Made by a program: the position numbers and the translations under genes | The notes under the pieces: generated by a model | Database searches by the model: none | What the model was told of the DNA's origin: nothing | What the model saw: the letters and a program-made list of their open reading frames with translations, nothing else | Sequence record: PQ287642.1 | DNA: 64,000 nt | Direction: 5' to 3' (one strand) | Origin: Pseudomonas phage HHBS36_1 | Shown here: in pieces, positions 53,134 to 54,664 of the stretch | Layout of the letters: every line of letters starts with the position of its first letter | Position numbering within the stretch: position 1 is the first letter of the stretch

Positions 53134-54664
53134 TGCATGGCTATCCGTCTGAGTACCATTGAAAGAGTTTTACCGGCGAAATGCTCACTTTTATTCCGAG
53201 CATATCTCACGTGGTGCGGTATGTTTTCACACACTAGGTAGGTCAACCTAGGTACCACATCTTGGAAGTCTTTCAGTTTACGGAGACGACCCAGAATTTG
53301 AATGTTATCTTTCTTGGAATCGGTAGCTTGTAACAATACTACCTCACGAAGATTAGGGATGTCTACACCTGTACCAGATGACTTAATAGTGGACACCGTA
53401 ATGTCGTTCTTAAGTAACTGTTCATAACTGCAACCTGAGACATGTCCGTTAACCACAAGGTCAGGGAACTTAGTCTTCAGATATTTAACCAGTTTTTCAA
53501 TAAAGGCGACCGTTGCACAAAGGAGGAGTAGTTTCTGACCAGGTAACCGATCTTTCACATACACGCCATCAGCAATACGACCGACCATCCTGAAATAGTC
53601 ATCCATCCGTTTAGGATCTTTCATCATTACCGTTTCGTAACGCGCATGGTTATACGTATTCTTAAACGGTGTAAGATAATCCTTCGGTTTGATCTTTGGT
53701 TCAGTGTAGAGTAGCCCCATGCAGTTGATGTAGACATCGTAGTTGGGCAGGCGACACATGGTCTCTGCTGGCAACATCTTGTCAATCATCTTCGTCACGT
53801 AGGCGTTCCCTGTGTAGGGAGTAGCCGACAAATAGATCTGCTTATTAATGTTAGAGTAAATATCGATACGGAAGGTTAGTCCTGGATCTTCTTGAATCTC
53901 GTCGTTAATTTGCAGTCCTGCTTGTATTGCTTCGTGGAACCGGGGTGGAGGTACATTGTATCCGAGCTCATGGAGTCGGTTACCATACTTCTCAAAGTTA
54001 TCTAGATATGCCCGGTAGGTAGTAGAAGAGATTACAATAACGTCAATCCCTTCAAGATCGTTTTCGACGCCGCGATCTATTAGTTTTTGGAGTTCTGCGG
54101 AACCCGAGATGGTAATGTATCTCTGGGCAATGTCCTTGTAAGTGTTCTGAAGAGCCTCAATCCAAATACCAAAATACTTGGGAGGAACCATCACAACACA
54201 TCTTACCCCCATCGAAGCCAAGGACGCTAGGCTCGTGAGGGTTTTCCCTTTCCCGTTTGCAAGTCTACCCGTGCAGAATGTAACCAATCACGCAAAATAT
54301 CTTCACGGATGATTTCCTGATAATCCCGGAGTACGTATTTCTCGTACATTTCGTAAACAGCAATTGCTGCTTTAGGGACAGGGATATCCTCAATCTCGAC
54401 TCGTTCTCTTGGGATACCTTTGTTCTCCAGATAACCGATCAGGTCTTCTAGTGAATTTCGGTGGATATAAGTCTCTGATAGATCTTCGAAACAACCATAG
54501 TACTTTTTCTTGAGTTCCATGATGATTCGATTACCAGGGATCTTCTTAGGTTCTTTCAAAGAAAGCCCTTCAAGAAACCCCTGCATCTTAGCGAACGTTT
54601 CCCGAGTATACCCAGATAGTCGGACACCATGCGTATAGCGCTCAGCCTTGAGTATCGGTAGCAT
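53130..54664 (-). CDS. SF2 helicase (UvsW/DEAD-like) interrupted by a -1 frameshift inside the Walker A box
   Basis: Frame A (54227..54664) ends ...LRDYQEII(x18)VDLQTGKGKPSRA*. Frame B (53130..54287) continues GKGKTLTSL..., then INDEIQE (motif II-like), LSATP (motif III), SGTGVDIP (motif V) and QILGRLRK (motif VI). Joining the frames at gggaaaa (54242..54248) restores Q-motif - TGKGKT. Confidence 0.6.

Follow-up and report, generated by a model that had tools for sequence, protein, structure and literature searches.

In this work we have analysed a 64,000-nt stretch of DNA from Pseudomonas phage HHBS36_1 (record PQ287642.1; the whole of this stretch is called the window hereafter) and we have found that a gene for a predicted XPB/RAD25-like superfamily 2 (SF2) helicase, located on its minus strand, is divided between two reading frames and is most probably decoded by programmed -1 ribosomal frameshifting (-1 PRF) at a G_GGA_AAG heptamer that is followed by a hairpin. 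Several elements expected of -1 PRF are present, namely an in-phase heptamer, an open reading frame (ORF) that continues in the -1 frame, a predicted structure at an adequate spacing and a signal that is conserved. That slippage takes place we infer from the comparison of lineages. An earlier reading of the window, made from its letters alone (the sequence-only reading), had proposed that the helicase gene is split and continues in the -1 frame, and had offered three explanations: ribosomal slippage, slippage of the RNA polymerase or a homopolymer error. The first of these is the one supported here, by eight interrupted lineages, the heptamer, the hairpin and its covariation.

The minus strand of the window at the site reads caa acg gga aag gga aaa ccc tca cga gcc tag. 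When the window sequence and the ORF translations were re-read, the coordinates, the phase of the heptamer and the products given by the sequence-only reading were all correct, except that the -1 frame continues for 370 codons and not 365, a trivial difference. The zero-frame ORF ends with ...VDLQTGKGKPSRA* and the -1 frame reads GKGKTLTSLASLASMGVRCVVMVPPKYFG... at the site and stays open until 53130, so that 54664..54248 joined to 54248..53130, with G54248 read twice, gives a protein of 511 aa. Joining the frames in this way also confirmed that the full Walker A motif, TGKGKT, is only obtained with a -1 shift. The slip site named by the sequence-only reading, G_GGA_AAA, does exist in phase, but the site that is conserved and well spaced is G_GGA_AAG, 6 nt upstream (Table 1). 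We therefore propose G_GGA_AAG as the main slip site; between G_GGA_AAA and the hairpin there is no spacer. Because the motif is a GK-GK repeat, the TGKGKT product would be identical whichever of the two heptamers the -1 shift took place at. The ORFs of the window, ~60 kb in total, contain only three in-frame copies of these heptamers (two of G_GGA_AAG and one of G_GGA_AAA) and two of the three are at the helicase site, which is therefore beyond chance; at the other in-frame G_GGA_AAG, at 47853, the -1 frame closes immediately.

Table 1. Features of the helicase frameshift site in the window, and hairpin stability in other lineages and in in-frame loci (z from the synonymous-recoding test described in the text)
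Feature	Position	Strand	Description
Zero-frame ORF, 145 aa	54664..54227	minus	Ends ...DLQTGKGKPSRA (QTGKGKPSRA); TAG at 54229..54227
Content of the 145-aa ORF	54227..54664	minus	N-terminal domain, Q-motif helix, first RecA1 strand, TGKGK, then PSRA and stop; secondary structure from the AlphaFold model of the PhiPA3 orthologue
-1 frame coding region	53130..54248	minus	Reads GKGKTLTSLASLASMGVRC... (GKTLTSLASL...); rest of RecA1, RecA2 and C-terminus of the helicase
Slippery heptamer G_GGA_AAG	54254..54248	minus	Thr-Gly-Lys codons of QTGKGKT; X_XXY_YYZ in zero-frame phase
Second heptamer G_GGA_AAA	54248..54242	minus	In phase; shares one G with the first heptamer; within the family confined to the species of the window
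Spacer GGAAA, 5 nt	54243..54247	minus	Separates the first heptamer from the hairpin
Stimulatory-type hairpin ACCCUCACGAGCC...GGCUUCGAUGGGGGU	54242..54205	minus	38 nt; predicted minimum free energy -19.2 kcal/mol
L030 hairpin	13-codon span		z = -5.0
L034 hairpin	13-codon span		z = -3.9
L032 hairpin	13-codon span		z = -3.4
L035 hairpin	13-codon span		z = -2.8
L036 hairpin	13-codon span		z = -2.1; -31.2 kcal/mol over 16 codons
L028 hairpin	13-codon span		z = -1.1, weak
L037	13-codon span		z = +1.3, no hairpin in the tested span
18 in-frame loci	13-codon span		Mean z = +0.28; 0/18 significant

According to the proposed mechanism, ribosomes translating in the zero frame would arrive at ACG GGA AAG, with GGA bound by tRNA-Gly in the P site and AAG by tRNA-Lys in the A site, where the hairpin located 5-6 nt downstream would impede them. 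Some of them would then slip one base back, re-pair on GGG and AAA and go on reading GGG AAA ACC CUC..., completing in this way the Walker A motif TGKGKT and producing the 511-aa enzyme, and the ribosomes that do not slip would stop six codons later and release the 145-aa N-terminal product. The peptide predicted from the shift, TLTSLASLASMGVR, is specified by -1-frame codons that precede the annotated C-terminal start (MGVRC), and the only -1-frame starts able to reach it are two TTG codons, one 13 codons upstream of GKGK and the other 9 codons after it. No phage tRNAs, which could have modulated slippage, were found within the window.

The same organization was found in other phages. Protein searches with the N-terminal fragment, after which the contigs were read, recovered seven further interrupted lineages, all of them metagenome assemblies (L028/L029, L030, L032, L034, L035/L041, L036 and L037/L038), and at least four of the seven are represented by more than one contig or sample. 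The fused proteins of the seven share 56-78% identity with that of the window, and the N-terminal fragments of the four most distant ones show 41-51% identity to its counterpart. In every interrupted lineage the zero frame reads CAR ACG GGA AAG G... and reaches a stop 3-8 codons past AAG, and in the -1 frame GGN AAR precedes a T or S residue and the P-loop helix. In the case of L036 and L037 the -1 continuation is an intein (of 346 and 208 aa, respectively) that ends in ...THN|T and has the splice-junction residues in place. Joining the frames with a -1 shift, and removing the intein if there is any, gives a complete helicase of 504-513 aa in all eight lineages, and the downstream ORF is complete in each of them (365-700 codons). 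Furthermore, the fragments found by the protein searches, C-terminal ones of 351-360 aa and N-terminal ones of 128-145 aa, all derive from this one interruption point, and no fragment ending elsewhere in the gene was present among the matches to the N-terminal and full-length queries. The G_GGA_AAG heptamer is present in 8/8 frameshifted lineages and in 0/20 distinct in-frame loci, most of which have GGT for the glycine (Fisher's exact test, ~3e-7, phylogeny ignored).

Scans for the DNA pattern GCNMGNGTNGAYYTNCARACGGGAAAGG gave only the L032 contig in the JGI metagenomes and nothing in IMG/VR. A tblastn search of GenBank phages with three of the distant frameshifted helicases revealed no close cultured relatives, the nearest being Noxifer (73%), in which the gene is in frame, and therefore the PS119XW species, to which the window belongs (see below), is the sole cultured carrier that we found. 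Three partial proteins deposited as Klebsiella pneumoniae (P0125, P0126 and P0127, from contigs of 259-377 nt) are 60-63% identical to the helicase N-terminal domain and are probably jumbo-phage reads within bacterial assemblies.

A stem-loop downstream of the slip site, which the sequence-only reading had suggested looking for, was indeed found. The predicted hairpin of the window has 13 stem pairs, two bulges and two more pairs inside the loop, and contains the zero-frame stop. It starts 5 nt after G_GGA_AAG in the window (5-6 nt across the lineages) and immediately, with a spacing of zero, after G_GGA_AAA. A heptamer-hairpin spacing of 5 nt is typical of -1 PRF stimulators. Because the region is coding, its stability was evaluated by synonymous recoding instead of generic shuffles, each sequence being compared with 1000-2000 recodings of the same 13 codons made with the codon usage of the gene itself. 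The window sequence folds at -18.9 kcal/mol, the recoded mean being -7.5 to -7.8 (z = -4.4), and 0/2000 and 1/1000 recodings were equally stable. In total, the hairpin was significantly more stable than its recodings in 6/8 frameshifted lineages, and the frameshifted and in-frame groups differed clearly (Mann-Whitney p = 0.0007).

Moreover, the stem sequences vary among lineages while the pairing is kept, as in CUCACGA/UCGAUGGG in the window, CUAACU/AGUUAG in L030 and CUUUCG/CGAAAG in L032. RNAalifold predicted one hairpin for the six frameshifted lineages that have no intein, with compensatory changes in 7 of the 14 consensus pairs; 85.7% of the cells were paired versus 72.7 +/- 3.0 in shuffles (0/500), the slid-partner controls were all lower, and the covariation score was 0.44 versus 0.24 in shuffles (0/500). 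In the L036 intein allele the hairpin is formed by codons of the intein itself, and the in-frame intein allele L025 has no hairpin. A scan of 53900..54500 against Rfam (E <= 1) gave no known RNA family.

Six GenBank records match the region at 99.8% identity (PS119XW and its RefSeq copy, BRkr, PA1C, phiLBG22 and phiHQ); they come from jumbo Pseudomonas phages that belong to the species Pawinskivirus PS119XW and were isolated in Poland, Japan, Russia, France and Pakistan. A few positions set the window apart from each of these records, so it represents a further isolate. Two separate coding sequences (CDSs) are annotated at the locus in PS119XW, BRkr, phiHQ and PA1C. On the other hand, the sister species HPP-Temi (89% nt and 97% aa identity) and PhiPA3 (gp068, 85% aa identity) have a single uninterrupted gene of 511 and 510 aa, respectively, with which the fused window protein aligns without gaps; the site codons are ACA GGT AAA GGA AAG ACC in HPP-Temi and ACA GGA AAA GGG AAA ACG in PhiPA3. 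The ancestral state thus looks intact, and the loss of the third base of the threonine codon in ACN GGG AAA GGN could have created ACG GGA AAG G. The comparison of orthologues that the sequence-only reading had recommended therefore has two sides: eight lineages are split at G_GGA_AAG, and HPP-Temi and PhiPA3 have fused genes without that heptamer. Such uninterrupted orthologues lacking the slippery site were what that reading had said would speak against recoding, but they do not refute it because the trait is polymorphic across the family.

With respect to selection, dN/dS in the comparison with HPP-Temi is 0.06 for the N-terminal part and 0.04 for the C-terminal part, and downstream of the site the window branch, polarised with PhiPA3, has 41.5 synonymous as against 4.5 nonsynonymous changes. 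Judging from these values, the downstream part is strongly constrained.

Among the other explanations, the one that survives best, although we consider it unlikely, is a tolerated mutation, that is, a 1-nt deletion in a dispensable helicase that would have left a pseudogene or a leaky null allele, with unselected slippage at a Walker A box that is slippery only by fortune. The closest relatives are intact, so the change would be derived or reversible, the GK-GK codons are by nature rich in GGR AAR, and the species clade is young (0.2-0.4% divergence), which means that the low dN/dS may pre-date the deletion. Knock-down of phiKZ075 with an antisense oligonucleotide (ASO) lowered ChmA accumulation but hardly changed the plaque-forming units (PMC12571901), and given this mild phenotype a weak or null helicase allele might be tolerated.

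Several of these points, together with others, weigh against programmed frameshifting. The gene is uninterrupted in the closest relatives, which function with it in that form, and frameshifting is therefore no intrinsic feature of the enzyme. A low dN/dS can neither date the frame change nor prove by itself that translation continued after it, and the frameshifted lineages could be young; within the species, the gene has only 3 synonymous and 3 nonsynonymous single-nucleotide polymorphisms, a number too small for a test of selection since the frame change. The seven added lineages are known from metagenome assemblies only, the hairpin is weak in L028 and missing from the tested span of L037, and when dinucleotide shuffles are used the window hairpin reaches only z = -1.5. 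Against a tolerated mutation, however, stand the interruptions of eight lineages within the same 10 nt and none elsewhere, with downstream ORFs that are intact and that in two cases carry an intein in the -1 frame, something hard to square with a dead gene. In addition, the predicted hairpins are more stable than coding requires, are confined to frameshifted alleles and show compensatory changes, and there are no A5 revertants among the seven same-species isolates.

It could also be proposed that the gene is truly split, and that the 145-aa ORF and a separately initiated C-terminal ORF reassemble into a helicase. This would agree with the two CDSs annotated in GenBank and with a TTG codon located in the -1 frame 13 codons upstream of GKGK in the window and in L028, but we regard it as very unlikely. 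In 6/8 lineages there is no ATG, GTG or TTG codon in the -1 frame between the nearest upstream stop and GKGK, and because of this separate initiation cannot yield a protein that bears the Walker A motif. The downstream starts, including the annotated MGVRC.. and MVPPKYFG.., all lie after the P-loop, 9-37 codons on; neither fragment would then hold GK-T and the next helix, although this segment is conserved at the amino acid level. Moreover, no conserved Shine-Dalgarno (SD) sequence or upstream SD-like element is visible in the lineage sequences around the site.

Still less probable is a correction at the RNA level in which the multisubunit RNA polymerase of the phage would slip and add a base in an A or G run, the second option of the sequence-only reading. 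There is an A4 run in the window, and phiKZ-type RNA polymerases are poorly characterised with regard to fidelity. However, known cases of transcriptional slippage (reviewed in PMC5009743) require long homopolymers, typically of 7 nt or more, and the runs at the site reach no more than A4 in the window, A5 in L028 and 3 nt in L030, L032, L034, L035 and L036, which makes this explanation implausible; it would also leave unexplained the conserved in-phase heptamer with its spaced hairpin.

Finally, although the site lies within an A run and PA1C shows two 1-nt differences in T runs nearby, a sequencing or assembly artefact is excluded and the frame change is real, because genomes of the species that were sequenced independently do not differ at the site (the window and all six GenBank records carry exactly GGGAAAGGGAAAACCC, with A4 in every one, contrary to the suggested homopolymer miscall), and the other lineages present the same frame change in different local sequences, several of them in two or more samples. 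The differences of PA1C consist of one T fewer at 54670 and at 53117, positions that flank the helicase gene, and are seen in that record alone; the T missing at 54670 shifts the annotated start and results in an N-terminal CDS of 163 aa. Both losses may be homopolymer miscalls in that record.

The helicase is present in 290 phage records, and the frameshifted alleles are spread over the whole family tree, each of them nested among in-frame or intein-bearing relatives. L032, for example, is 92% identical to the in-frame P0018 and 91% identical to the intein-bearing P0036. Frameshifted alleles are more alike in a short cassette around the site than in the rest of the gene (by 5.7 points on average; 83% in the cassette, 54270..54195, versus 66% in the rest of the gene for the window and L028), whereas frameshifted/in-frame and in-frame/in-frame pairs are less alike in the cassette than elsewhere. 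These data suggest that the trait has been gained and lost repeatedly, that recombination has exchanged a short cassette, or both. Between the window and HPP-Temi, nucleotide identity is 74% at 54287..54198, compared to ~90% for the remainder of the gene, and it reaches 100% over 54557..54377 (180 nt), so that the identical stretch and the most divergent 90 nt of the gene are ~130 nt apart, as in a mosaic. Similarly, L032 and L039 are 69% identical at the cassette and 85-93% in its flanks, and between L039 and L040, two in-frame loci with neither the heptamer nor the hairpin, the Walker A region is the least conserved (62% versus 80%). All this suggests a hotspot of recombination or gene conversion around an intein homing site.

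In fact, at least 33 of the top 120 homologue clusters have an intein inserted exactly between GxGK and T of Walker A, a junction (GKGK|T) that is 6 nt 3' of the conserved slip site. Examples are P0013, P0031, P0048, P0062 and P0095 and the loci L025/L026, L036:825-2912 and L037:3091-4638. The inteins of the homologues have 142-353 aa, many of them with a LAGLIDADG_3 or Hom_end domain, and most start with Ala (AQPL.., ATSN..) instead of Cys or Ser and end in (I/V)VTHN|T; the shorter ones (142-227 aa) resemble mini-inteins from which the endonuclease has been lost. No intein is present in the window, where 74 nt lie between HSARVDL and PPKYFG.

As to the origin of the trait, the cassette might be a polymorphic, recombining allele in which the loss of 1 nt, in the region targeted by the endonuclease, would blunt cleavage or co-conversion by competitors that bear the intein (a 'savior indel'), the hairpin having been selected afterwards for the recovery of enough helicase through -1 PRF, and recoding would then be a defence against a selfish element. 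This idea, which we consider doubtful, is hinted at by the insertion point of the intein, located 6-12 nt from the slip site, by the fact that the region is a divergence hotspot in all pairs, and by the cassette likeness shared by frameshifted alleles, which adjoin intein-bearing relatives in the tree. Against it, two frameshifted alleles have inteins themselves, and so the frameshift and the intein are not simply mutually exclusive; furthermore, synonymous changes could give resistance without any cost.

Programmed -1 frameshifting of this helicase can be compared with several known systems. G_GGA_AAG is the slip site of the G/GT tail-assembly chaperones of phage lambda, a -1 frameshift that resembles the one proposed here in the heptamer, in the longer fusion produced by the shift, in the short zero-frame product and in the use of the ribosomes of a Gram-negative host. 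In contrast to that system, the gene is a helicase and the site lies inside a catalytic motif; the hairpin predicted here is strong, whereas the lambda site is not known to have more than a weak stimulator; and the G/GT frameshift is almost universal in tailed phages, whereas the helicase trait is polymorphic among close relatives. The heptamer is highly shift-prone in Escherichia coli (Atkins et al. review, PMC5009743).

The E. coli dnaX gene (tau/gamma; A_AAA_AAG, hairpin and upstream SD) shares with the helicase an X_XXA_AAG-type heptamer, a hairpin ~6 nt downstream, a replication/ATPase function and two products. However, in dnaX the shift truncates the protein and the zero frame is full-length, whereas the helicase would need the shift for any active enzyme, and the upstream SD of dnaX has no visible conserved counterpart in the helicase lineages. 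Another parallel is with the orfA-orfAB genes of IS3/IS911, in which the zero frame encodes the N-terminal domain alone, the catalytic fusion arises solely through -1 PRF at an A_AAA_AAG-like site that is followed by a structure, and frameshifting sets a low enzyme level; they differ in that they encode the transposase of a mobile element, in that the frameshift is fixed in the family, and in that it is not inside a P-loop. Regarding the 'savior indel', the G-run mutants of the herpes simplex virus (HSV) thymidine kinase are also enzyme genes with a 1-nt indel that is rescued by ribosomal frameshifting, with reduced enzyme (Atkins et al. 2016, PMC5009743), but their shifting is very inefficient and unassisted and the indel arises under drug selection, whereas here a hairpin and a perfect heptamer are conserved.

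The mechanism is of a known kind. New are the gene, the position of the slip site within a P-loop, the polymorphism of the trait and the proximity of an intein hotspot. Our literature searches revealed no report of frameshifting in this helicase, and the HPP-Temi paper contains neither 'helicase' nor 'frameshift'. If programmed frameshifting is correct, there would be a conserved recoding event in a core gene of the nucleus-forming jumbo phages, which at least 5 GenBank genomes currently list as two unrelated 'hypothetical proteins', and both gene callers and pangenome counts would be wrong at this locus. It would be unusual in that the slip site is in the catalytic P-loop, so that no active enzyme would be made without frameshifting, and in that the trait is present or absent between sister species that are 97% identical and coexists with a hotspot of inteins at a distance of one codon pair. 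Phages of the PS119XW type and HPP-Temi constitute a natural, isogenic-like pair for asking why an XPB-like helicase encoded beside the RNA polymerase genes would be throttled or its N-terminal domain made separately.

On the basis of structural modelling, the gene is an XPB/RAD25-like SF2 helicase, with predicted enzymatic activity, and the orthologue of phiKZ gp075, PhiPA3 gp068 and 201phi2-1 gp131; it is a core gene of the nucleus-forming jumbo phages. In Pfam searches the N-terminal ORF alone had no match and the C-terminal ORF alone had one Helicase_C match below the cut-off, and the joined protein gained a ResIII match, also below the cut-off, that spans the junction. The AlphaFold model of the PhiPA3 orthologue (predicted local distance difference test, pLDDT, 91.6) has an N-terminal alpha/beta domain (~1-95), a helix in the Q-motif region, strand beta-1 at 130-134, the P-loop and then a helix at 141-152, and it is because of this layout that the zero-frame product is taken to comprise the N-terminal domain and the first RecA1 strand. 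The best Foldseek match of this model was XPB/Ssl2 of TFIIH (8ebu_A, E = 2e-15), with archaeal XPB also found, and a sequence profile search gave a weak match to archaeal XPB around Walker A. Like the XPB/Ssl2/RAD25 translocases, which provide the best fold match, the phage protein has an N-terminal domain before two RecA domains, but their identity is only 11-15%, and partners like Bax1 or TFIIH are not known for it. The database label 'RAD2/SF2 helicase' probably stands for RAD25/XPB.

Two RNA polymerase beta-like ORFs, of 657 and 703 aa, lie immediately upstream of the helicase gene (minus strand, 53130..58832 with the helicase), and a role of the helicase in transcription, for instance in promoter opening, is conceivable. 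In PhiPA3 (L003:1-1486; 53811..58420 of the record) the annotation of the upstream RNA polymerase beta gene consists solely of a misc_feature 'fragment' of 4.6 kb, ~2x the 1.97-kb gene of the window, and the gene may be interrupted by an insertion (an intron, an intein or a homing endonuclease). Elsewhere in the window, an in-frame C_CCA_AAG at 43251..43260 (plus strand) forms the last codons of a 647-aa ORF (41317..43260), presumably, from its sequence, the exonuclease part of a DNA polymerase. The -1 frame at this heptamer is open for 122 codons and the GTG of the next ORF overlaps the stop (GTGA), for which translational coupling is a simpler reading than a second frameshift site.

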